From a virus (Duplodnaviria; Heunggongvirae; Uroviricota; Caudoviricetes): a stretch of 8,544 bases of DNA. The notes under the pieces were generated by a model. The model saw only the letters and a list, made by a program, of their open reading frames with translations. It did no database searches and was not told the origin of the DNA. Each line of letters opens with the position of its first letter. Positions within the stretch are counted from its first letter, which is position 1. The DNA lies in the IMG/VR virus record IMGVR_UViG_2751185968_000010; one strand, 5' to 3'. Shown one piece after another: positions 1 through 8,544 of this stretch. Made by a program: the position numbers and the translations under genes.

Positions 1-163
1 CATCGTCGCCCTTCCACTGGTTATCCCAGCCCTCAGGCTTCACTTTAAAGTACGGCGGGTCCGTGACTATCAGGTCAACAGAATTTTCGGGTAACGACCG
101 GATAAATTCCAGGCAGTCGGCGTTGATTAACTCACAACTGGATATTTTTACAGTATTAAGCAT
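1..163 (-). CDS. DNA methyltransferase, N-terminal 54 codons (beta-class N6-adenine/N4-cytosine type); gene continues beyond the window start
   Basis: Minus-strand ORF starting at ATG (163-161) and open to position 1. My translation: MLNTVKISSCELINADCLEFIRSLPENSVDLIVTDPPYFKVKPEGWDNQWKGDD. The D-P-P-Y motif near the N-terminus is the catalytic motif IV of amino-MTases. Not in the ORF track because it is partial. Confidence 0.75.
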   Translation of the reverse strand, partial: MLNTVKISSCELINADCLEFIRSLPENSVDLIVTDPPYFKVKPEGWDNQWKGDD

Positions 164-256
164 GGATCATTAAGCCTGTCTCTGATAGGCTCATTCTGCT
201 TTTGCGCAAAGCAGTGGGCCTGAGGTTTGCTTGTGAACCCAACGCATGAGCAGATG

Positions 257-285
257 GCTGGTGGGTGCCCCTAACACCCACCAGC
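257..285. repeat. Perfect 11-bp inverted repeat GCTGGTGGGTG / CACCCACCAGC with 7-nt loop (GC-rich stem-loop); no adjacent U-tract
   Basis: Read directly from the sequence. Lies in the leader between a minus-strand terminator and the methyltransferase start. Confidence 0.6.
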
Positions 286-298
286 GCCCATTTACCAC

Positions 299-326
299 AA
301 ATAAAAAAGCCTTCACTGCGGAAGGC
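299..326 (-). terminator. Rho-independent terminator (minus strand) at the 3' end of the small ORF
   Basis: Stem GCCTTC / GAAGGC (309-314 / 321-326) with 6-nt loop; on the minus strand it is followed by UUUUUUAUUU (plus-strand A-tract 302-308). The stop codon of the 313-510 ORF lies within the stem. Confidence 0.5.
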
Positions 327-510
327 GTCTGTAACAACCGAACTGATAGTCTGCCAGATCCGCCATAACCAGCTGGGTCAGTATTAACTGGCAGCGTTCG
401 CGTGAAAGGTAAGTATTCTGCGCTATCTCCCCGACTGTCGCCGGTTCGGTAACGCTTAATTCATTAAACACCACTCTGGCGGTTTCTGTCATATCCTGCT
501 GTTTTAGCAT
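313..510 (-). CDS. Small hypothetical protein (65 aa from ATG 510-508); possible helix-turn-helix DNA-binding protein
   Basis: ORF-track ORF 313..597 trimmed to the first in-frame ATG (MLKQQDMTETARV...), preceded by AGGGA about 7 nt upstream. The segment ATVGEIAQNTYLSRERCQLILTQLV looks like an HTH. Bracketed by two minus-strand terminators. Confidence 0.45.
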   Translation of the reverse strand: MLKQQDMTETARVVFNELSVTEPATVGEIAQNTYLSRERCQLILTQLVMADLADYQFGCYRRLPQ

Positions 511-631
511 GTCTTTTTCCCTTTTCCGGTTAACGTGACACACCAATAACTCTTGTCGAAAAAGCCAGCAAGCTGAAAGACAGGTATTCACCGCCACCAG
601 CGCGTTTACTATACTGACGCGATTTCAGTCA

Positions 632-657
632 TAAAAAACCCGCCAGGCGGCGGGGTG
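632..657 (-). terminator. tR'-like intrinsic terminator about 60 nt downstream of the PR'-like start
   Basis: Minus-strand RNA CCCGCC-GCCU-GGCGGG followed by UUUUUUAU; no U-tract on the plus strand. Confidence 0.55.
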
Positions 658-690
658 TAAAAAATCTTCTAACGTCAGGCATAAAACGCC

Positions 691-731
691 CATCGTTAGA
701 GCAAATTTACCACAGATTCGGGAAAAATCAA
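691..731 (-). promoter_or_regulatory. PR'-like late promoter with probable Q-utilisation (qut) region
   Basis: Minus strand: -35 TTGATT (731-726), 16-nt spacer, -10 TAAATT (709-704). The segment GGTAAATTTGCTCTAACGATGGG closely resembles my recollection of lambda PR' (GGTAAATTTGACTCAACGATGGG). Sits immediately downstream of the Q gene. Confidence 0.55.
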
Positions 732-736
732 CAACA

Positions 737-1558
737 CTATCGCGTTACCCTCTTTAACTGCCGCTCCGCCCATGCCTCTTCAATGTCAAACCGAACCACC
801 AACGTATCGTAAAAGCGTTTCACTGATTTTTTCCACGTATCAAGCGTGATAGCACTCGTCACTTTGCATATGGCATTAAATGCCTCCGTTGATGGTAGTC
901 TTTCACAGCCACGACCACCACAACGCTGGCAGTCTCTGATAACAGGCATACCACGTTTTACCGACTCTTCACGATGAATGGCGACACCACGCCCACGGCA
1001 ATCCTTACAGGCGGTGGAAACCTCACCCTTTCCGCCACACTCCGGACAGGCAACTTTTACCACCTCCCTGACTTTTTTCCATTCTTCCCAGTAAGACGGA
1101 TACACACCTTTCGTACACTTTGCCCATACCGGCGGCTTACCATCCGGATACTGGATCTTGTTTGTAAAAACCTCGCTTTCAATAAATTTTTTTCCGTGAC
1201 AGCAGGAGCACTGTTTTTTGCTCGCCGCGCTACGGGCATAATCTTCAAACGCATACGAAGCCATAATACGCATCACTGCCGGTTTTATTTCTGCCGGGAG
1301 TTTTCTTAACGCCGCCACGCGATCACACCGACTGAGTGCATATTCTGTCAGCAATTCTGTTGCCCGCTCTCTGTCATTCATACTAATGCCCATTTTCCCA
1401 AGGAACGCAGAAAACCCCATCTCAGCCCGATTCTGTGTCATGCCCTGCGCGGCCATCACATCAGTGATACTCAGCGCATCTTTCGACGTTGAGGCCGATG
1501 CATCAGTCAGGCCGGGGGATTTTGGGGAGTAGTATTTCGGTAAATCTTCCAGTTTCAT
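737..1558 (-). CDS. Q: Late-gene antitermination protein Q (lambda-Q family) with an expanded cysteine-rich insert
   Basis: 273-aa ORF. N-terminus MKLEDLPKYYSPKSPGL...DVMAAQGM and C-terminus YDTLVV...RVTR align with my recollection of lambda Q (MRLESVAKFHSPKSP...DVMAAMGM ... YDALVV...AVTR). Contains CSCCHGKK, CPECGGKG, CKDCRGRG and CQRCGGRG repeats. Start ATG overlaps the rusA stop (ATGA). Confidence 0.8.
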   Translation of the reverse strand: MKLEDLPKYYSPKSPGLTDASASTSKDALSITDVMAAQGMTQNRAEMGFSAFLGKMGISMNDRERATELLTEYALSRCDRVAALRKLPAEIKPAVMRIMASYAFEDYARSAASKKQCSCCHGKKFIESEVFTNKIQYPDGKPPVWAKCTKGVYPSYWEEWKKVREVVKVACPECGGKGEVSTACKDCRGRGVAIHREESVKRGMPVIRDCQRCGGRGCERLPSTEAFNAICKVTSAITLDTWKKSVKRFYDTLVVRFDIEEAWAERQLKRVTR

Positions 1559-1929
1559 TTTTTGACCTGCCCTTCAAGCATTATGGGGTAAATCTTCACG
1601 CCCAGCCGCCCCCCAGGAACGCGCTGACCGCGCACAATATTGATTTCATCAAACTGCTCGTCGTCTATGAGAAGTCCGGCATGCGTCAGCGCATCCAGTG
1701 GTGCTTTCAGAATATTGTCCAGGTCGCGACGACGCTTATCCGGTGGCTCTGCAATCACCTTTATCGCCAGCCTTCCGGACAGGCTTAATTTCAGCCGCTG
1801 CTGGCGAACAATAAGCGCCACAGCCCGGCGATAACGCTTTCCCTCCTCCGAGATAAAATATGTGCTGCCACGGCGTCGCCAGTAAGTGTTCACCGTCGGC
1901 GGGTAAGGTAAAACCAAATCTATGAGCAT
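1555..1929 (-). CDS. rusA: Holliday junction resolvase RusA (prophage-encoded)
   Basis: 124-aa ORF. The segment KRRRDLDNILKAPLDALTHAGLLIDDEQ...GGRL matches the conserved RusA core (K-12 RusA has [22 protein letters not shown]). SD AAGAGGTGA upstream; 4-nt overlap with Q. Confidence 0.9.
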   Translation of the reverse strand: MLIDLVLPYPPTVNTYWRRRGSTYFISEEGKRYRRAVALIVRQQRLKLSLSGRLAIKVIAEPPDKRRRDLDNILKAPLDALTHAGLLIDDEQFDEINIVRGQRVPGGRLGVKIYPIMLEGQVKK

Positions 1930-1941
1930 CAGTCACCTCTT

Positions 1942-2988
1942 TTACCCAAGCACGCCAGTTGCAAAGGCGTGATCAAGAAAACGAAAAATTAAATCAACCT
2001 GAGAACCATGCTTTTCTTCGAACGCCAGAGGATCCGCATGAAGCTCGTTGTGATGCTCCCGACACAGCGGTAGCGTGAAAATATCGTGAGATTTTGTCCC
2101 CATTCCGCCCTGACCATGACCAATCAGGTGATGGGGATCGTCGGCTGGCTTACCACAACACGCACACGGCTGTGTCTTCACCCAGCGTGTGTATTTCTCG
2201 TTAACCCAGCGGCGACGTTTAGGTCGTTTCATGAAAGATTCCGGAGACTCAGGATCAACGGCAATGCTGACCACCGTCTCTTCCTGTGGCGGGTTTTGCT
2301 GGTGGGCGTGAGACAGCGGCGCAAGATTTTTTGTGCGCTGCTTCAGTATGCTGGTGGCGGTCTGCTCTCCCGGTACGATGTCGCTTTCACGGTACATTGA
2401 GCGGATTTTTTCCGCACGCAACCCCAGCGAACGACGTAATACCGCTTCCGGTAGCGCGTCCGCCACCTGATTGCGGACCGCCCACCAGGATAATTCAGCC
2501 AGCGATAATTCCCGTTCCTGCGAGCCATTCATTGCATGGAGTATGACGTCAATCATCCATGCAGACAGGTTTTGGTGAGCAAGTTGCCCGAGTGATTCGG
2601 AGGTCTGGTCGCGCAGCTGGTTGTCGCAGTGCCAGCACAACACCATTGCGCCGGTACCATAACGGTGAATGACGGTTTCACTGTGGTGATAATCGCCGTG
2701 TGGCCACTGGCAGGATTTAACATGGCGCAGTAACCAGTCAGACAATGCGCCAGCGCCACCAGCAGCACGAATCACTCGTTCGTCGCTGAAAAATGGCAGT
2801 AATGATTTATCCTCCGCCAGCGGCTGGCGAACGGCAGGAACGACCCCGGACGACAGATTACGCATGCTTTTCGGTTCCGGCTCCACCAGTACCCGGGTAT
2901 TGTGGAATACCGGCATGGATTCACGGCCCGGCTTAACGATCACCAGCCCGAGTTCCGGTACCAGAACAGGTCGAAGTAATACCCGCAC
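1942..2988 (-). CDS. Prophage DUF968-like protein with C-terminal HNH-like motif (YdfU-like)
   Basis: 348-aa ORF with GTG start directly after the upstream stop and SD GGAGG 4 nt upstream. C-terminus PCACCGKPADDPHHLIGHGQGGMGTKSHDIFTLPLCREHHNELH has a CxxC...HH...CxxHH...H pattern typical of HNH/zinc-ribbon nucleases. Size and position recall the Qin-prophage protein YdfU. Confidence 0.7.
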   Translation of the reverse strand: MRVLLRPVLVPELGLVIVKPGRESMPVFHNTRVLVEPEPKSMRNLSSGVVPAVRQPLAEDKSLLPFFSDERVIRAAGGAGALSDWLLRHVKSCQWPHGDYHHSETVIHRYGTGAMVLCWHCDNQLRDQTSESLGQLAHQNLSAWMIDVILHAMNGSQERELSLAELSWWAVRNQVADALPEAVLRRSLGLRAEKIRSMYRESDIVPGEQTATSILKQRTKNLAPLSHAHQQNPPQEETVVSIAVDPESPESFMKRPKRRRWVNEKYTRWVKTQPCACCGKPADDPHHLIGHGQGGMGTKSHDIFTLPLCREHHNELHADPLAFEEKHGSQVDLIFRFLDHAFATGVLG

Positions 2989-2989
2989 G

Positions 2990-3268
2990 TTACCTCCAGA
3001 TACGTTGCTGGAATGTGCGGGACGGACGCGGTGGCCGTTCGGAGTAAGGGAGCCTGACGGAGATTATCCAGTGACGGTAGTCGAGGCTAAGGGCTTTTTT
3101 AACCTCGCATCCGCGCCTGCGGTAACACTGAATGAGCCAATCGGCCTGTTCTTCAGTGCATGGGGGATGCTGGTACCAGTCTGACTTAAATGCATGAGAA
3201 TACCGCTCGTGCGTGTGGGCAAGAACGGTCGAATTATCATGATTGTAATATTTTGCGTTGCGTGCCAT
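2990..3268 (-). CDS. Hypothetical prophage protein (92 aa), translationally coupled to the downstream DUF968 gene
   Basis: ATG start with GGAG about 8 nt upstream; its stop is 1 nt before the next start; E. coli-like composition. No family recognised. Confidence 0.55.
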   Translation of the reverse strand: MARNAKYYNHDNSTVLAHTHERYSHAFKSDWYQHPPCTEEQADWLIQCYRRRGCEVKKALSLDYRHWIISVRLPYSERPPRPSRTFQQRIWR

Positions 3269-3334
3269 CGGTTTTCTCCGGTGGCACGGTGTTACTCAGC
3301 GGGAGTTCAGCCCCGCGCAAGATTGTAGATGAGT

Positions 3335-3586
3335 TTATTCTTCTGAAAAAGCAGAAAAGCCAGCTTTTATTCCGATCTCTTTCAATGCCTGTAATGAAGT
3401 GACAAACTCACCGTCGCGCAAGATAAATCCGTCCGTCACTCGGGCATCCACAAAATTAATTAACGCAGCCCCATTTTTTTGCAAACACACAATGCGGTAA
3501 TGACTAACAATATTTCCATTTTCAACGCACACAGCATAGAGGCCATCTTCACAAAAAATTTTACGCAGTTCTTCGATGTTCATCAT
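3335..3586 (-). CDS. Small hypothetical prophage protein (83 aa), immediately downstream of the hok locus
   Basis: ATG start with SD GGAAGGA 7 nt upstream. Same size and position as rem in the Qin prophage of K-12, as I recall that gene order; sequence identity not confirmed. Confidence 0.55.
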   Translation of the reverse strand: MMNIEELRKIFCEDGLYAVCVENGNIVSHYRIVCLQKNGAALINFVDARVTDGFILRDGEFVTSLQALKEIGIKAGFSAFSEE

Positions 3587-3664
3587 CAGAATCCTTCCGG
3601 ATAATTAGCTCTCCCCTTTAAGGGACCATCCCTCTTATCCCTGCGCGCTACTTAAGTATTTTTG

Positions 3665-3694
3665 ATTCTATTCCGGCACCGTCCAGAACTTCAA
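3665..3694 (-). promoter_or_regulatory. Candidate sigma70 promoter for the small-gene/DUF968/rusA/Q operon
   Basis: Minus strand: -35 TTGAAG (3694-3689), 18-nt spacer, -10 TAGAAT (3670-3665). Located between the hok terminator and the next gene. Weak by itself. Confidence 0.25.
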
Positions 3695-3700
3695 ACGCGT

Positions 3701-3733
3701 TGAAAATAAAAACAAAAACCCGCCGAAGCGGGT
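3701..3733 (-). terminator. Rho-independent terminator at the hok mRNA 3' end
   Basis: Minus-strand RNA CCCGC-UUCG-GCGGG followed by UUUUUGUUUUUAUUUU. Just upstream on the RNA, CCUCAACGCACC is complementary to the mRNA 5' end GGUGCUUGAGG (fbi/tac-like pairing). Confidence 0.65.
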
Positions 3734-3802
3734 TAAGTGCGGGTGCGTTGAGGATGCCTGCCACATCAGAGGTGGCGAGGGATTTCTCCCTCGCCGGGTC
3801 TC

Positions 3803-3958
3803 TTACTCCTCAGGTTCGTAAGCTGTGAAGACAGCGACCTCCGTCTGGCCGGTTCGGATTCGTACCTCGCAGAGGTCTTTCCTCGTTACCAGTGCCGTCA
3901 CTATGACGGTTAAACAGATGACGATCAGGGCGATTAGCATCGCCTTTTGCTGCTTCAT
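3803..3958 (-). CDS. hokD: Hok-family type I toxin (HokD/RelF-like), 51 aa
   Basis: Translation MKQQKAMLIALIVICLTVIVTALVTRKDLCEVRIRTGQTEVAVFTAYEPEE matches my recollection of HokD (RelF) and is close to Gef. SD AAGGAGAAG upstream. Single TM helix followed by the conserved C-terminal domain. Confidence 0.9.
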   Translation of the reverse strand: MKQQKAMLIALIVICLTVIVTALVTRKDLCEVRIRTGQTEVAVFTAYEPEE

Positions 3959-4128
3959 AGCCTGCTTCTCCTTGCCTTTCGGCACGTAAGAGGCTAACCT
4001 ACGTGTGTAGAGCATAGATATGGCCTCAGATTAATGTTAAGCGTCTTGCCGGACGCGTAATGTTAACTGGGGCTTTTCTCTATCTGCCTTTGGTGTTGAT
4101 GCCCGAGGCAGATAGCCTCAAGCACCCG
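3959..4128 (-). promoter_or_regulatory. hok mRNA leader: tac-like 5' element, sok-target region and an in-frame upstream (mok-like) start at 4015-4013
   Basis: Minus-strand leader GGTGCTTGAGGCTATCTGCCTCGGGC... parallels the plasmid R1 hok leader (GGCGCTTGAGGCTTTCTGCCTCATGACG...) as I recall it. The upstream ATG opens a frame continuous with hok (track ORF 3803..4015). Confidence 0.5.
3986..4060 (+). ncRNA. Candidate Sok-like antisense RNA (type I antitoxin); ends approximate
   Basis: Plus strand CTTGCCTTTCGGCACGTAAGAGGCTAACCT... is positionally and sequence-wise analogous to the R1 sok promoter/5' region (..CTTGCGCAAAGCGCGGTAAGAGGCTATCCT..). Antisense to the mok-like start. Confidence 0.35.
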
Positions 4129-4133
4129 CAGCA

Positions 4134-4162
4134 ATTCTACTTAACTACCGTTACCTCGCCAA
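4134..4162 (-). promoter_or_regulatory. Candidate hok promoter
   Basis: Minus strand: -35 TTGGCG (4162-4157), 17-nt spacer, -10 TAGAAT (4139-4134), about 7 nt upstream of the inferred mRNA 5' end GGTGCTTGAGG. Confidence 0.4.
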
Positions 4163-4537
4163 TATGAAATCAATCAGAAAGGTGATCCATAAGAACAACA
4201 GCAAGACAATAAATTGCCATTACAGCAGCAATAGCCAGCGCACATTTGAGAACCAGCACCACAACCTCCTGTATTGGACGTACACCAGTCCTGATAAATA
4301 TGAGGCTGTCTCGTCAGTGATTCAATACAACTACTGGGTATAGTTTCTATGATTTTGTTCTGTGGAAATGGAAAACAGCAACCAGTCACCACCAGCACTT
4401 CTTTAAACATGCCAAGTCACACGCAAGCCAACATTATAGTTCCCTTTGAGCGAGCAGATGAAGCTAGCAAAAATATTGATCACTTAGGATGCATTACTAA
4501 CGTTGCTATGTGTTAACGAACAGGGAGTGGGTCATCA

Positions 4538-4553
4538 GCATAAATATTTATGC
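4538..4553. repeat. Perfect 16-bp palindrome GCATAAATATTTATGC about 150 bp upstream of the membrane-protein gene
   Basis: Read directly; the reverse complement is identical. Confidence 0.6.
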
Positions 4554-4700
4554 AGTAGGTTTCTTTTAGGACTAGATTAATCAAAAACATTTAGATAAAA
4601 TTATAAAATCAAGAAATTGGTGGCAATTAATCTTTAATTGTGCCAGCTGAATTTCGTTATTATAGAAGATTAGCTTTTTTTTGAATGTTTGGAGAGTAAA

Positions 4701-5480
4701 ATGTTAGAACCACCAAAGAGTTATAATGAAATGTTGCCTATGCTCCATAAGGCGACTTTTATTACTACATTTATATTTTACCTATCATTAGTCATTTATG
4801 GCTACATGCCATTGGTTGGCATTAATGCCAAGTATATCCCCCCCGTTAAAGACTACGAGGAATTTATTAAATGGATATTAACCTTTGGCATATTACCAAT
4901 TGCATCTTCAGTTTTTTGGTCAGTAATTAGTGGAGCTTTAGATCTACATAATAATGTAGCAAAAATTATTGGAATAAGGAAGATGTGGGATAGTCATTTA
5001 ATTATTAAACCATTAGCAAAAATTGCAGGCGTTACGAGAAAATTAACTACTGATGAATCTCACAAGGTAATGAGTAAACTGTATTACCCAGAAGTTAAAG
5101 AGTTAAAAGACAAACATTACGTTGAACTTTTCTGGAACAAAGTTTATTACTTTTGGGTTTTCTTTGAACATACAGTAATCGCATTTGTTACTATTTTAAT
5201 AATAAGTATCGCCAAATTAACAAATATATTCTCTGTTACTGGCTCTTTAATTAATCTTTGGTTGTGGATTATTTCTCTTGTCGCATTTGACTTCCTTATT
5301 TTCATAGCATCAGTTAAACCAAGAACAGAAAGCCAAGTAAGACAAATACCTGATAGCAAAATAAAAGAATTCTTTAACAATAACAATATTTTTTTAAACG
5401 AGGTTGATTTTGAATTACAAAATAAATGGAATAAACATACGTTCAGAAAATGCAGCGAAACCGCACACTATGCCATCTAA
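4701..5480 (+). CDS. Hypothetical integral membrane protein, 259 aa, four predicted TM helices
   Basis: ATG at 4701 with SD GGAGAG 4 nt upstream (track ORF starts at an upstream TTG). Hydrophobic segments ATFITTFIFYLSLVIYGYMPLVGI, WILTFGILPIASSVFWSVISGAL, VYYFWVFFEHTVIAFVTILIISIA, LINLWLWIISLVAFDFLIFIASV. A 780-nt open frame in 30% GC DNA is unlikely by chance. Confidence 0.7.
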   Translation: MLEPPKSYNEMLPMLHKATFITTFIFYLSLVIYGYMPLVGINAKYIPPVKDYEEFIKWILTFGILPIASSVFWSVISGALDLHNNVAKIIGIRKMWDSHLIIKPLAKIAGVTRKLTTDESHKVMSKLYYPEVKELKDKHYVELFWNKVYYFWVFFEHTVIAFVTILIISIAKLTNIFSVTGSLINLWLWIISLVAFDFLIFIASVKPRTESQVRQIPDSKIKEFFNNNNIFLNEVDFELQNKWNKHTFRKCSETAHYAI

Positions 5481-6063
5481 CTATCTCTGTAAACAGATTG
5501 AAAGCACTAATAAAAATGGCAATGCCCTTGATTTTGGATGTGGAAAACTTAGATATTCAGAACAATTAGTAAATAAATTTGAAACTGTGACATTTTTAGA
5601 TTCCAGAAGACAACTAGAAAGAGTGCAAATTATCAGAGGTGTACAAACCACGATTCCAGATTACGTGATAAATAACTATAAGAATGCTAATATTGTTTCT
5701 TATGAAAATATAGATAAAATAACAAATCATTATGATTTCATACTTTGCGCAAACGTGCTTTCCGCAATTCCATGTGAATCCACAATTCACAAAGTCCTCA
5801 GTGCGATTAGAGAATTATTAAAGAGTGATGGTGAAGCACTGATTGTCAATCAATACAAAAGTTCTTATTTCAAGAGGTACGAGAGCGGTATTAAACATTT
5901 GCATGGGTATATATACCAAAACTCTCGTAATGCTTTCTACTATGGTTTATTAGATGTGGATACTGTAAGTAAAATATGCTCAGATAATAATTTAGAAATA
6001 ATAAAATCATGGAGCAAAGCAGGTAGTTCATATGTGGTTGTTGGTAAACATATACATATTTAG
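5470..6063 (+). CDS. Small class-I SAM-dependent methyltransferase (197 aa from ATG 5470; alternative TTG starts at 5404/5410)
   Basis: Rossmann MTase motifs in order: motif I ALDFGCGKL, acidic post-I VTFLD, motif II DFILCANVL, motif III LLKSDGEALIV. No (D/N/S)PP(Y/F) motif, so probably not a DNA amino-MTase. ATG 5470 overlaps the upstream stop (ATGCCATCTAA). Confidence 0.65.
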   Translation: MPSNYLCKQIESTNKNGNALDFGCGKLRYSEQLVNKFETVTFLDSRRQLERVQIIRGVQTTIPDYVINNYKNANIVSYENIDKITNHYDFILCANVLSAIPCESTIHKVLSAIRELLKSDGEALIVNQYKSSYFKRYESGIKHLHGYIYQNSRNAFYYGLLDVDTVSKICSDNNLEIIKSWSKAGSSYVVVGKHIHI

Positions 6064-6377
6064 TTTATTTCAACAAATTATTAGAAAGAGTGATTTGCTT
6101 GTTAATTATTAGCTCGGCAGTGCCGGATCAACATGACCCTGCCACTTAGGCCATTGCCGGTTTATCTACTTTTGTAAGGTTCAGCATGAAGTTTTTATAT
6201 ACTCTTCCTAATATCAATAGTGATGCTCGCTTATGTTAGCTGCTTCTTGTACATAGTAGCCTTCTCCGACAGTACTGCAATGAGCGGAGAGTAAAAGTCG
6301 ATAAACAATAAGGAGGTTCACAATAAATATTTCTCGGTGAAACTTTCAAAGCATTCTCTGTTTTGCTAAATCGACAA

Positions 6378-7277
6378 TTATAAATCAACAACATTTAGTG
6401 TTATATCAATATTATTTAGCCTTGCAATCTCTGATGAATCACTTGCTATTTTAGCTTTTAATTTATCAATATTAATCATATCTTCATGGCTTATATAAAC
6501 CATATCACCTTGGTTAACTTTAGATTTGTTCACTATGGCTTGAATAACAGACAAATCATCCATTACACCTCTCATAAATTTCACCATGCTTTGATCTTTG
6601 AAGTCAGATATCGATTTTGAACGTTGCTTACGTTGAATTGTTCCTTTTGTAATTACTTCATTAATTTCTTTTAAACCAGTGAGCATATCAGACAGACTGC
6701 CTTCGCAACTCATCCGATGTTTTATTGCATTGCGATTAATAATATTGAGTATAATTTCGAGTGAATCTTTATCACTCCATGGATGTAATGATGTATAATC
6801 ATGATGGCGTCGAATGGCGTCAATCATATCCTGGACCATATCTTCATCTGCTTTATCGCAAAGTTCATTCACGAAATAGCTGGGGTCGATTATTTTACAA
6901 TAACTTGGAGTTAGGTATCTTGAGGCTTTACAAAAACCAAAAATATATAAAGTAGAGTATTTATCTTTCAGACTCTCTCCTATTTCATTTGTTTCCTCAA
7001 AAGATTCGATAGTTTTTTTAATTTTTGCTGGACTTGCATTCGTAGTAACTTGAACTGCTATCATGTTTTTATTATCAGCTAAATCAATGGCGGGAAAATT
7101 AACTTTAATCTGATTCATGTTTACCAGTTCACCCATTTTCAGCGCGCGAAACATAAAGATGGTCAATGACTCAATTATTCTTTCCATGTCATGAAAGCCT
7201 GCCTGTTTGCGTTGCGCGATATAAAGCTGGAGTAGTGCAATATCACTCTGTAAGTTTCTAATAAGTGGATCAATCAT
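6378..7277 (-). CDS. Hypothetical 299-aa protein with a candidate HEPN-type R-N-x-x-x-H motif (putative RNase/abortive-infection-like)
   Basis: ATG start with SD AAGGA 9 nt upstream. Residues 182-187 RNAIKH (nt 6734-6717), in a predicted helical context LEIILNIINRNAIKHRMS, fit the HEPN Rx4-6H signature. N-terminal region has a strand-like AIDLADNKNMIAVQVTT segment. No family assignment is possible without a search. Confidence 0.65.
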   Translation of the reverse strand: MIDPLIRNLQSDIALLQLYIAQRKQAGFHDMERIIESLTIFMFRALKMGELVNMNQIKVNFPAIDLADNKNMIAVQVTTNASPAKIKKTIESFEETNEIGESLKDKYSTLYIFGFCKASRYLTPSYCKIIDPSYFVNELCDKADEDMVQDMIDAIRRHHDYTSLHPWSDKDSLEIILNIINRNAIKHRMSCEGSLSDMLTGLKEINEVITKGTIQRKQRSKSISDFKDQSMVKFMRGVMDDLSVIQAIVNKSKVNQGDMVYISHEDMINIDKLKAKIASDSSEIARLNNIDITLNVVDL

Positions 7278-7313
7278 AGCTAATAATCCTTTTCAATGAA
7301 GCTGGAGGTGTGT

Positions 7314-7346
7314 TTAACTATTAGTTAAATTTCTATTTTTATAGAA
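7314..7346. repeat. Two adjacent palindromes in the promoter region of the 299-aa gene (TTAACTA-T-TAGTTAA and TTCTAT-TTTT-ATAGAA)
   Basis: Read directly: 7314-7328 and 7331-7346, 37-70 bp upstream of the start codon at 7277. Confidence 0.5.
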
Positions 7347-7529
7347 ACAAGCTTTACAACTTCATCAAAGTTTCTCAAATCCTAATCCACTTTGCAAATC
7401 CACTAACCATGCTGAATGCTTTCTGTTGTTAAACATATCCGCTGCTGGCACCAAGCAGACAAACACACTAACTCTACCCTACTCCACAAAAGAGCCAATC
7501 AATATCTGAACTAATAAACTTTAATCTCA

Positions 7530-7952
7530 TCACTTCAATAAATATCGAGCATTTCCCTGATAGAATGCTAGTATGCGCTGCATAACTTCACTCTTCCGGC
7601 ACTCGCGACAGATTATGTTCTGACGCCTGTCGTAGCGACGTATTTCTCCGTCAGGTAATGACCAGATAAGGTCCGGATCAACCGCAGATGGTTCCTTCAG
7701 CTTTGCCCTTGAGAGCTTTTTACGGGCATTTTGCCAGTCCTTACGCGCCTGTTCAGACGGGAATAACCCGTAACCAGAGTTGTATACATCGCCGCTGGCA
7801 ACCAGCTCTCTTGCGAGAACGCTCATCAGATATCTTGTCGCACCTGTCTTGACTTCCAGTTGCCGTAACGTCTCACGACCGCTCTGGCGCACGAGTTCCA
7901 CCACCTGCCCTTTAATTTTTTCCCGCTCTTCTTGTGTAAAAACTTTTGCCAC
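7530..7952 (-). CDS. Hypothetical protein (140 aa), backbone-like GC
   Basis: GTG start with strong SD AAGGGGGA 4-5 nt upstream; about 50% GC; no family recognised. Confidence 0.6.
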   Translation of the reverse strand: MAKVFTQEEREKIKGQVVELVRQSGRETLRQLEVKTGATRYLMSVLARELVASGDVYNSGYGLFPSEQARKDWQNARKKLSRAKLKEPSAVDPDLIWSLPDGEIRRYDRRQNIICRECRKSEVMQRILAFYQGNARYLLK

Positions 7953-7992
7953 AAGTCCCCCTTAAAATTACCTCATGACCTGAAATCAAAAC

Positions 7993-8183
7993 TTATCCTC
8001 TGAAACCAGGCGGAATTTCTGTATCCGGTTCAGAAATATGATTAACACAACGCTGTACAGGTGAACGCCCCAGGCGGATGACCAGTTCGTCCCATTTTTC
8101 GCGGAGCTTTGACGGGCTCATGATGTTTTTTACCCAGAACGGATCCCGCTGTACCCGACCAAACATTTCACAAATTTGTCTGT
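7993..8183 (-). pseudogene. Possible 3' remnant of a gene truncated by the IS insertion (open frame abutting the IS end)
   Basis: Minus-strand frame open from the IS junction (8183) to a stop at 7995-7993: ...RQICEMFGRVQRDPFWVKNIMSPSKLREKWDELVIRLGRSPVQRCVNHISEPDTEIPPGFRG. Could also be non-coding. Confidence 0.25.
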
Positions 8184-8544
8184 TGAACCGCCCCGGGAAT
8201 CCTGGAGACTAAACTCCCTGAGAAAGAGGTAAACAGGATGACTAAAAATACTCGTTTTTCCCCCGAAGTCCGTCAGAGGGCGATTCGTATGGTTCTGGAA
8301 AGTCAGGGCGAATATGACTCACAGTGGGCGGCAATTTGTTCCATTGCCCCAAAGATTGGCTGTACACCGGAGACTCTGCGTGTCTGGGTACGCCAGCATG
8401 AGCGGGATACCGGAGGCGGTGATGGCGGGCTCACCACCGCTGAACGTCAGCGTCTGAAAGAGCTGGAACGTGAAAATCGTGAACTGCGCCGCAGTAACGA
8501 TATCCTTCGCCAGGCTTCCGCTTATTTTGCGAAGGCGGAGTTCG
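8184..8544 (+). mobile_element. IS3-family insertion sequence, left end (IS629-like); continues beyond the window
   Basis: Terminal sequence TGAACCGCCCCGGGAATCCTGGAGACTAAAC... starting with TG, followed 54 nt later by the OrfA start; matches my recollection of the IS629 left end. Confidence 0.8.
8238..8544 (+). CDS. IS3-family transposase OrfA (HTH subunit), first 102 codons; 3' end outside the window
   Basis: Translation [102 protein letters not shown] matches IS629/IS1203-type OrfA as I remember it. SD GAGG upstream. Confidence 0.9.

Follow-up and report, generated by a model that had tools for sequence, protein, structure and literature searches.

We analysed a stretch of DNA of 8,544 nucleotides from a virus of the Caudoviricetes (IMG/VR record IMGVR_UViG_2751185968_000010; "the window" hereafter means this whole stretch), in which a low-GC segment lies between the hokD/sok locus and the DUF977 gene of a lambdoid prophage. 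Very probably this segment is the cargo of a hotspot and is composed of two modules independent of each other, one consisting of the open reading frames ORF1 and ORF2, which are homologous to YmfE and YmfD of Escherichia coli K-12 (jointly YmfED), and the other consisting of ORF3, a protein with an N-terminal SMEK nuclease domain followed by a C-terminal domain (CTD). Taken as a whole, the data are probably best explained by accessory cargo that fills a variable slot of the prophage and comprises a SMEK-CTD nuclease module and a YmfED module. The positions of the features are collected in Table 1.

Boundaries, composition and reading frames of the low-GC segment

The boundaries of the segment were taken from the alignment to phage Tritos, which has both flanks. 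Since the homology to the Tritos backbone stops at position 4457 and restarts at position 7427, the cargo is assigned to positions 4458-7426, i.e., 2969 bp. In 300-nt sliding windows the GC content dips from 0.42-0.57 to 0.28-0.38 between about position 4450 and about position 7400 and then goes back up, with the overall value being 0.323 in the cargo versus 0.505 in the left flank and 0.495 in the right flank. The GC content at the third codon positions (GC3) behaves in the same way, with 0.25-0.28 for the three ORFs of the island versus 0.50-0.58 for Q, rusA, DUF968 and DUF977. Moreover, the longest stop-free run in the island has 304 codons, while 2000 simulations of the island under a first-order Markov model gave longest stop-free runs with a median of 85, a 95th percentile of 120 and a maximum of 180 codons. 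The island ORFs are real. The complete island is found in 151 of 5426 complete E. coli genomes, and 3691 genomes match when the flanks are made slightly longer.

ORF1 and ORF2 run counter to the phage operon and are convergent with ORF3. Scans of the three intergenic regions for promoter and terminator consensus sequences and for inverted repeats gave counts no better than those of shuffled sequences, and neither a clear terminator in the interval where ORF2 and ORF3 converge nor a convincing promoter was found. Note also that the spacer between these two ORFs (positions 6064-6377, 314 bp) has a GC content of 0.37, slightly above the rest of the island, and that a terminator-like hairpin, an inverted repeat and an Rfam match were all absent from it.

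A variable-cargo slot between hokD/sok and DUF977

The comparison of related prophages showed that the interval between hokD and DUF977, with the DUF977 gene adjoining it in every prophage compared, holds five other cargo types besides ymfED/SMEK, two of which are PADLOC defence candidates. These are a 341-aa RelA/SpoT protein in strain 14EC020 (PDC-S33, E 5e-119), a 444-aa protein in phage Tritos (PDC-S15, E 1e-98), a DUF5677 protein in "capsule spontaneous mutant 25a", QueH with a methyltransferase fragment in strain GF131, and two hypothetical proteins in strain N68. In the BL21-derived strain Nico21(DE3) the slot is essentially empty, the flanks being 195 bp apart. A variable-cargo hotspot is recognised by conserved flanks, by an allele with an empty site and by cargo types that exclude one another in related elements. 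All three are present, and the pattern is that of a prophage accessory or defence hotspot. It resembles the defence and moron hotspots of temperate phages such as P2 and P4 in its conserved flanks, exclusive cargo, empty allele and enrichment in defence candidates; unlike in those, the cargo that the slot carries here is not a validated system. In our literature searches, none of which was aimed at the slot itself, the hokD/sok-DUF977 slot of Rac/Qin-like phages was not met.

These results bear on a first-pass annotation of the window, in which a foreign low-GC island at positions 4480-7420 had been noticed next to hok/sok and an insertion sequence. The drop in GC was borne out by both the sliding windows and GC3, and the limits given there prove accurate to about 20 bp. 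The two neighbours are where they were said to be, with hok/sok (3803-4127) adjoining and an IS3-family element starting at 8184. The annotation had also pointed to three improbably long ORFs of 259, about 197 and 299 aa; their lengths are indeed beyond all simulations and the 299 aa of ORF3 stands, whereas the canonical length of ORF1 is 231 aa and that of ORF2 is more likely 217 aa. That the island is horizontally acquired cargo in a lambdoid prophage agrees with the finding that related prophages carry alternative cargo or none, and the comparison with such prophages that had been proposed yields insertion junctions at 4457/7427 and an empty site in Nico21(DE3). Neither homologues of housekeeping function nor a uniform composition was found.

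Two modules rather than one unit

The island noticed in the first-pass annotation is not a single unit of linked genes: among the loci examined, ORF1-ORF2 and ORF3 occur together only in the present E. coli prophage lineage and are apart outside it. With tblastn, homologues of ORF1 and ORF2 were absent from 21 genome loci encoding ORF3 homologues, and an all-against-all BLAST of the ORFs within 5 kb at the same loci gave zero conserved neighbours of any kind for ORF3 homologues. Thus, for example, Pectobacterium and metagenomic contigs have ORF3 homologues of 82-83% identity positioned upstream of a CBASS pair, and the Salmonella homologue (88%) lies beside a GT4-conflict glycosyltransferase gene and an integrase gene, in both cases without ymfED. 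Conversely, the ymfED pair is found without SMEK in e14, in P2-like prophages of Enterobacter and Providencia, where it stands just after ogr, in a relaxase-bearing element, and in Microbulbifer, Marinobacter and Colwellia. A tblastn search with the backbone genes gave nothing at the other homologue loci, so that the homologues elsewhere are not in a prophage of the present type. The two modules, being functionally independent, would have landed side by side by chance in a recombination-prone slot.

It is also noted that the SMEK homologues with 82-83% identity have the same orientation as the CBASS pair (SMODS cyclase and S_4TM effector) and precede it by about 150 bp. This arrangement recurs in one island type (L004 8001-10978; L054 6001-8981; L056 96-3076) and may be a real linkage.

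ORF3, a stand-alone SMEK nuclease-domain protein

Residues 5-146 of ORF3 match SMEK_N (PF21941) with 80.3 bits against a cut-off of 27 (E 1.6e-22), and the NCBIfam model NF033859 matches with 106.4 bits against a cut-off of 30 (E 4.9e-31). The Argonaute-associated PADLOC model Aga_REase-PNTD1-PNTD2 also matches (E 1e-20), in its restriction endonuclease (REase) part only (model positions 9-143 of 463), and so does the solved Mrr domain of the partner protein of a short prokaryotic Argonaute (pAgo) from Kordia jejudonensis (PDB 26bh; E 2.2e-7), with which ORF3 has a common motif block FPAIDLAD...QVT...K. In the AlphaFold2 (AF2) model, in which the confidence of the CTD is given as the predicted local distance difference test (pLDDT) in Table 1, the N-terminal domain has the alpha/beta core fold of restriction endonucleases, and the whole protein is a REase-like fold joined to a helical bundle. 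In 26 sequences of the family E36, D65, Q76, T78 and K85 are invariant, and the C-terminal half has an invariant block of its own (R182, A184, E192, G193 and M198).

About 108 homologues of ORF3, with a uniform length of about 300 aa, were found in Gamma- and Betaproteobacteria, Campylobacterota and Bacteroidota. A profile of the CTD searched against 1.84 billion representative proteins gave 95 clusters, where the domain spans about residues 120-300 in the full-length hits, these being proteins of about 290-320 aa, and SMEK_N was present in all 10 of the 10 distant full-length hits tested. Because this exhaustive profile search places the CTD behind SMEK_N alone, the SMEK-CTD architecture is fixed and the CTD is private to the family, and shuffling of the CTD among other domain contexts was rejected on the same result. 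An RNase of the HEPN class was also rejected for the CTD: the R182-x4-H187 arrangement is there, but the His is replaced by Asp across the Bacteroidota clade, and a HEPN signal in the CTD is absent both by profile and by fold.

In the literature SMEK is described as an Mrr-like nuclease effector, which short pAgo systems carry as a fusion with APAZ and short Lamassu systems as a fusion with LmuA; the nucleases of both are activated through target-induced assembly (PMC10810196, PMC12205087, PMC12663957, bioRxiv 10.1101/2023.06.08.544223). The neighbourhoods of the ORF3 homologues are rich in defence genes. In Citrobacter the neighbours are Lamassu (LmuB_C/CTD7/MC3) and AAA_21 genes, in Vibrio Abi_alpha, and in Enterobacter the homologue is in an integrase-bounded island with AAA_13 and HNH_2, and with SymE/TacAT nearby. 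At 18 further loci we found the CBASS cyclase with its 4TM effector, GajB, DpdF, AriA, PtuA, AbiLi, defence reverse transcriptases, PDC-S05/S19 and Mrr_cat, with integrases among the neighbours. Judging from these homologies and settings, ORF3 is probably a single-protein defence nuclease acting against phages or plasmids. In such a protein the C-terminal bundle would restrain the nuclease and mediate sensing and/or oligomerisation, and upon activation the nuclease would degrade DNA, with an outcome that may be like abortive infection or like restriction.

ORF1 and ORF2, a YmfE-YmfD pair

ORF1 is 60% identical to K-12 YmfE over 230 aa (E 2e-108) and ORF2 is 68% identical to K-12 YmfD over 192 aa (E 2e-99), while at the DNA level the window is 69% identical to ymfED of e14 over 1371 nt. 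ORF2 is a minimal class I S-adenosylmethionine (SAM)-dependent methyltransferase that matches Methyltransf_12/23 and has weak similarity to TehB, OvoA and BioC, far under the family cut-offs. Its sequence has neither a (D/N/S)PP(Y/F) nor a C5 (PC/ENV) DNA-methyltransferase motif, and a search of the PDB by sequence returned nothing at E <= 0.01. The start of ORF2 is more probably TTG at 5410 (217 aa) than ATG at 5470 (197 aa), because GAGG is located 6 nt upstream of the former, the resulting N-terminal extension is conserved with K-12 YmfD (20 codons; translated, LNY..G.NIRSENAAKPHT) and forms of 217 aa are annotated elsewhere. RefSeq annotates ORF2 as 197 aa from ATG 5470, and many genomes may carry a wrong start.

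The stop codon of ORF1 deserves attention. A run of seven T, which is T6 in the prophage of NZ_CP019005, turns the stop (TTT TAA) into read-through, giving a tail of 28 aa that overlaps the start of ORF2. Each of the 25 best E. coli hits spans 3300 bases versus the 3301 bases of the query, which is consistent with T6. The T7 may be a sequencing slip, or it may be a real inactivating or phase-type change.

A membrane-protein gene followed by the methyltransferase gene, with the two abutting or overlapping, was found in eight independent contexts, and the order is held in e14, Enterobacter, Providencia, a metagenomic element, Microbulbifer, Marinobacter and Colwellia, with the upstream protein in the last three having 219-233 aa and the motifs and hydropathy pattern of YmfE. 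As judged from the sequences, ymfED is a tightly coupled pair that is conserved across Gammaproteobacteria. ORF1 and ORF2 would be translationally coupled, and YmfE and YmfD would act together at the membrane.

The company of the pair is also dominated by defence genes. In K-12, ymfE-ymfD (b1138-b1137) is at the low-GC end of e14 proximal to the attachment site (att), directly beside lit. In Microbulbifer it comes immediately after the Olokun genes OloA/OloB (E 1e-88, 5e-172), in a mobilisable element it is near a type I-C retron RT-Toprim (E 1e-219), in Enterobacter it is near a protein with a weak match to a TIR-like effector (E 3e-8), and in Marinobacter it is among transposases and YoeB/YefM. 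Note also that the YmfE/YmfD-like pair of Microbulbifer (L044 1725-6669) is on the same strand as OloA/OloB, where it is either a neighbour in a defence island or part of an extended operon. As for the K-12 gene, the ymfD knockout grows normally and has reduced early biofilm, and it was examined, with no conclusive result, as a candidate mRNA m6A methyltransferase (PMC12096079, PMC3105296). Tentatively, we assign YmfED a possible role in defence or exclusion; YmfE, as the membrane protein, would recruit or regulate the methyltransferase YmfD.

Relation to known systems

That none of the three proteins could be placed, as the first-pass annotation had it, is correct only in part. ORF1 and ORF2 are YmfE and YmfD and ORF3 is a SMEK protein (PF21941, NF033859), whereas no island protein matches a complete named defence system in PADLOC 2.0. 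The annotation's suspicion of a defence-type context is supported, as elsewhere the genes keep company dominated by defence systems. In PHROGs no informative match was found for the island proteins.

Among known systems, the SMEK/Mrr-APAZ effector of the short pAgo system of K. jejudonensis ("SPARMA") has a homologous N-terminal nuclease domain. By contrast, ORF3 has no APAZ, its C-terminal 150 residues being an unrelated helical bundle, and there is no MID-PIWI gene, as in the short pAgo systems SPARDA and SPARMA, adjacent to it in the window and no conserved neighbour in the 21 loci. The short Lamassu protein LmuA with SMEK is of the same effector-domain class, and the Citrobacter homologue of ORF3 stands directly after a Lamassu operon. 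However, that operon is complete without the ORF3 homologue, having its own CTD7, MC3 and LmuB_C; ORF3 has no LmuA C-terminal region by PADLOC and Pfam, and LmuB or LmuC is not a neighbour in the window or in most of the loci. With APAZ absent and neither pAgo nor LmuB or LmuC as a partner, ORF3 falls outside the short pAgo and the Lamassu systems.

For ORF1-ORF2 the closest relative is ymfE-ymfD of e14, which has the same gene order, abutting ORFs and low GC, with both proteins being homologous. Each pair also adjoins a single-gene abortive-infection or nuclease gene, namely lit in e14 and SMEK in the island. The two differ in location, att-proximal in e14 and in the lambdoid slot here, and in the read-through tail of 28 aa that ORF1 has here. 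TehA/TehB has a similar layout, with a membrane-protein gene followed by a gene for a small SAM methyltransferase, and ORF2 gives weak hits to TehB profiles. Nevertheless, ORF2 reaches 28-29 bits where the cut-offs are 218 and 303, failing the equivalog test, and YmfE, with four transmembrane (TM) helices, is unrelated to the 10-TM TehA.

Weighing of the explanations

If the three genes formed one restriction-modification-like system, SMEK would restrict, ORF2 would protect the self DNA and ORF1 would be an accessory. This reading could draw on the spacing of 314 bp between the nuclease gene and the methyltransferase gene, which share a low-GC block, and on a weak PADLOC hit of ORF2 to mad2 of methylation-associated defence (E 9.7e-5). 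But ORF2 matches small-molecule families only (Methyltransf_12/23, TehB, OvoA C-terminus), far under the NCBIfam cut-offs, and has no DNA-methyltransferase motif, the genes are convergent, and there is no ymfD/ymfE near SMEK homologues, even those that are 82-88% identical, nor SMEK near ymfED elsewhere, so that such a system is very improbable and, by the absence of co-occurrence, largely refuted. A Type II restriction-modification pairing of ORF2 with ORF3 in particular was rejected on the absent motifs and the absence of co-occurrence. It is rather unlikely, too, that ORF3 is a constitutive Type IV-like, i.e., modification-dependent, restriction endonuclease whose CTD reads modified DNA, and not an abortive-infection effector that responds to a trigger. 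ORF3 has a catalytic domain of the right superfamily, but the CTD gives no match to SRA, to a winged helix-turn-helix or to another known DNA-reader fold, being a generic helical bundle, and the documented SMEK domains are collateral nucleases switched on by assembly (PMC10810196, PMC12205087). An even smaller chance is to be given to the genes serving the lytic cycle of the phage, for example by degradation of the host DNA or DNA modification, and so being backbone rather than cargo, which we regard as hardly credible. While ORF3 is indeed co-oriented with the early-right operon, with replication genes on one side and nin-type genes on the other, near-identical prophages have the slot empty or otherwise filled, many genera carry the genes in chromosomal islands away from phages, the composition is foreign to the backbone and the PHROGs are uninformative.

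YmfE-YmfD may, on the other hand, be a moron with no role in defence, acting in lysogenic conversion or in the handling of small molecules, for example by methylation, at the membrane, of a toxic compound, a quinone or a lipid of the envelope. This would fit the weak similarity of ORF2 to TehB, UbiG-type and OvoA-type enzymes, the order of membrane protein and methyltransferase as in TehA/TehB, the location of ymfED adjoining att in P2-like prophages and e14, which is a frequent site of conversion genes, and the lowered early biofilm formation upon the ymfD deletion in K-12 (PMC3105296). Yet no transporter or enzyme fold was detected in YmfE, which is unrelated to TehA, the TehB-type scores are about one tenth of the family cut-offs, and the recurring immediate neighbours of ymfED are defence systems; we consider a moron of this kind somewhat unlikely. 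A role in defence or exclusion is our best guess for YmfED, though a weaker one than for ORF3, with envelope or small-molecule modification being a serious rival there. Finally, the cargo may be decaying and non-functional in the present strain. Such AT-rich DNA is typically silenced by H-NS in E. coli, the ORF1 stop has been lost by a homopolymer slip and an IS3-family element has inserted in a replication-region gene. However, ORF2 and ORF3 are intact and identical to those of NZ_CP019005, the 25 best hits are near-identical, and the change in ORF1, which may be an error of sequencing, does no more than lengthen the C-terminus, making decay improbable.

The explanation by accessory cargo with a SMEK-CTD nuclease module and a YmfED module, and above all the role in defence that it would give to them, must be set against several points that weigh in the opposite direction. 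The motif of ORF3 is D...QxT...K with a downstream K and not the classical D...(D/E)xK; as it departs in this way, ORF3 is taken to be catalytically competent on the analogy of the Kordia protein, which showed only weak nuclease activity (PMC12205087). The CTD has only generic 4-helix-bundle structural matches and no informative relative. PADLOC 2.0 has no model for ORF1 and, for ORF3, gives the shared REase domain only. Some neighbours are housekeeping genes, and association by neighbourhood in mobile islands is only suggestive as evidence of defence. Through decades of phage work on K-12, the biofilm effect is the sole phenotype of ymfED, with no growth defect of the deletion (PMC3105296, PMC12096079), and the YmfED module may be impaired in the present window because the ORF1 stop codon is lost. 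Our searches of the literature by protein accession, SMEK and ymfD/ymfE turned up no study of function and no phage-defence test of stand-alone SMEK proteins or of YmfED.

The host prophage and its other features

Positions 1-8183 of the window are nearly a copy of a lambdoid, Rac/Qin-like prophage beside ompW in many E. coli genomes, e.g., NZ_CP019005, and the base-by-base alignment to this genome (locus L001), which bears out the prophage setting, has three single-base differences in all. The minus strand is the early-right operon, with a cro-like gene, a ydaT-like gene and a 321-aa gene followed by DUF977, the island and hokD/sok, and then by rem, a 92-aa gene, DUF968, rusA and the antiterminator gene Q (737-1558). 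The IS3-family element, which begins about 760 bp past the island, interrupts the 321-aa gene downstream of DUF977 (remnant ORF 7993-8166). Because of this insertion in a gene of the replication region, the prophage copy is probably defective.

Table 1. Features of the window and of the low-GC segment
Feature	Position	Strand	Basis or remark
hokD toxin gene and sok antisense RNA (left flank, backbone)	3803..4127	-	Pfam HOK_GEF; Rfam sok 114 bits; PGAP annotation
Low-GC cargo filling the hokD/DUF977 variable slot	4458..7426	.	Tritos alignment; GC; slot comparison
ORF1, YmfE-like inner-membrane protein, four predicted TM helices and cytoplasmic helical insert	4701..5480	+	259 aa here; canonical 231 aa ends at about 5396
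T7 homopolymer (T6 in L001) abolishing the ORF1 stop codon	5390..5396	+	base-by-base alignment with L001
ORF2, YmfD-like class I SAM-dependent methyltransferase, small-molecule type	5410..6063	+	Pfam Methyltransf_12/23/TehB; conservative start ATG 5470, 197 aa
ORF3, 299 aa	6378-7277	-	co-oriented with the phage early-right operon
ORF3 C-terminal helical-bundle domain (residues 147-299 and stop), family-specific	6378..6839	-	AF2 model, pLDDT 85
ORF3 N-terminal SMEK / Mrr-like PD-(D/E)xK nuclease domain (residues 1-146)	6840..7277	-	
DUF977 gene, replication module (right flank, backbone)	7530..7952	-	PF06163 E 1.7e-30
IS3-family insertion sequence, outside the island	8184..8544	.	divergence of window and L001 after 8183; thousands of matches annotated IS3 family transposase

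There is a second variable slot just past hokD. In the window it holds rem (3335-3586, GC 0.40), and in phage Tritos and strain GF131 it holds a gene for an ImmA/IrrE metallopeptidase and a hypothetical gene (L002 2581-4337; L052 1-979). In addition, the prophage of NZ_CP019005 has more accessory cargo, namely a pair annotated "beta family protein" and "sce7726 family protein" between the terminase and lysis genes, IraM, and a DNA methyltransferase gene adjoining tRNA-Arg and tRNA-Ile (L001 coordinates 7428-9057, 13320-13655 and 14603-15863).

Implications

What is new here is of a moderate degree: the stand-alone architecture of a known effector and a functional lead for ymfED. The SMEK effector has so far been studied only inside multi-protein Argonaute and Lamassu systems, and ORF3 is a compact, partner-less version of about 300 aa, which for these reasons can serve as a simple model for the off/on control of the effector. 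The slot between hokD/sok and DUF977 belongs to a family of prophages that is very common in E. coli; its cargo is swapped, and it could be mined for defence genes. Moreover, for ymfE-ymfD there is now a testable hypothesis, the two genes being a mobile cassette that is conserved and has Lit, Olokun and retrons among its neighbours.

A bolder proposal is that both modules are unrecognised anti-phage systems, with a partner-less SMEK-CTD sensor-nuclease in the one, whose own helical domain would detect infection and activate the Argonaute/Lamassu-type effector, and in the other a new kind of defence, where YmfE as a membrane sensor would control the small-molecule-type SAM methyltransferase YmfD. 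We hold it to be unlikely as a whole. If it is true, two y-genes of E. coli K-12 would at last have a function, and if it is true that YmfD methylates a non-DNA substrate in immunity, the mechanism would be a new one.

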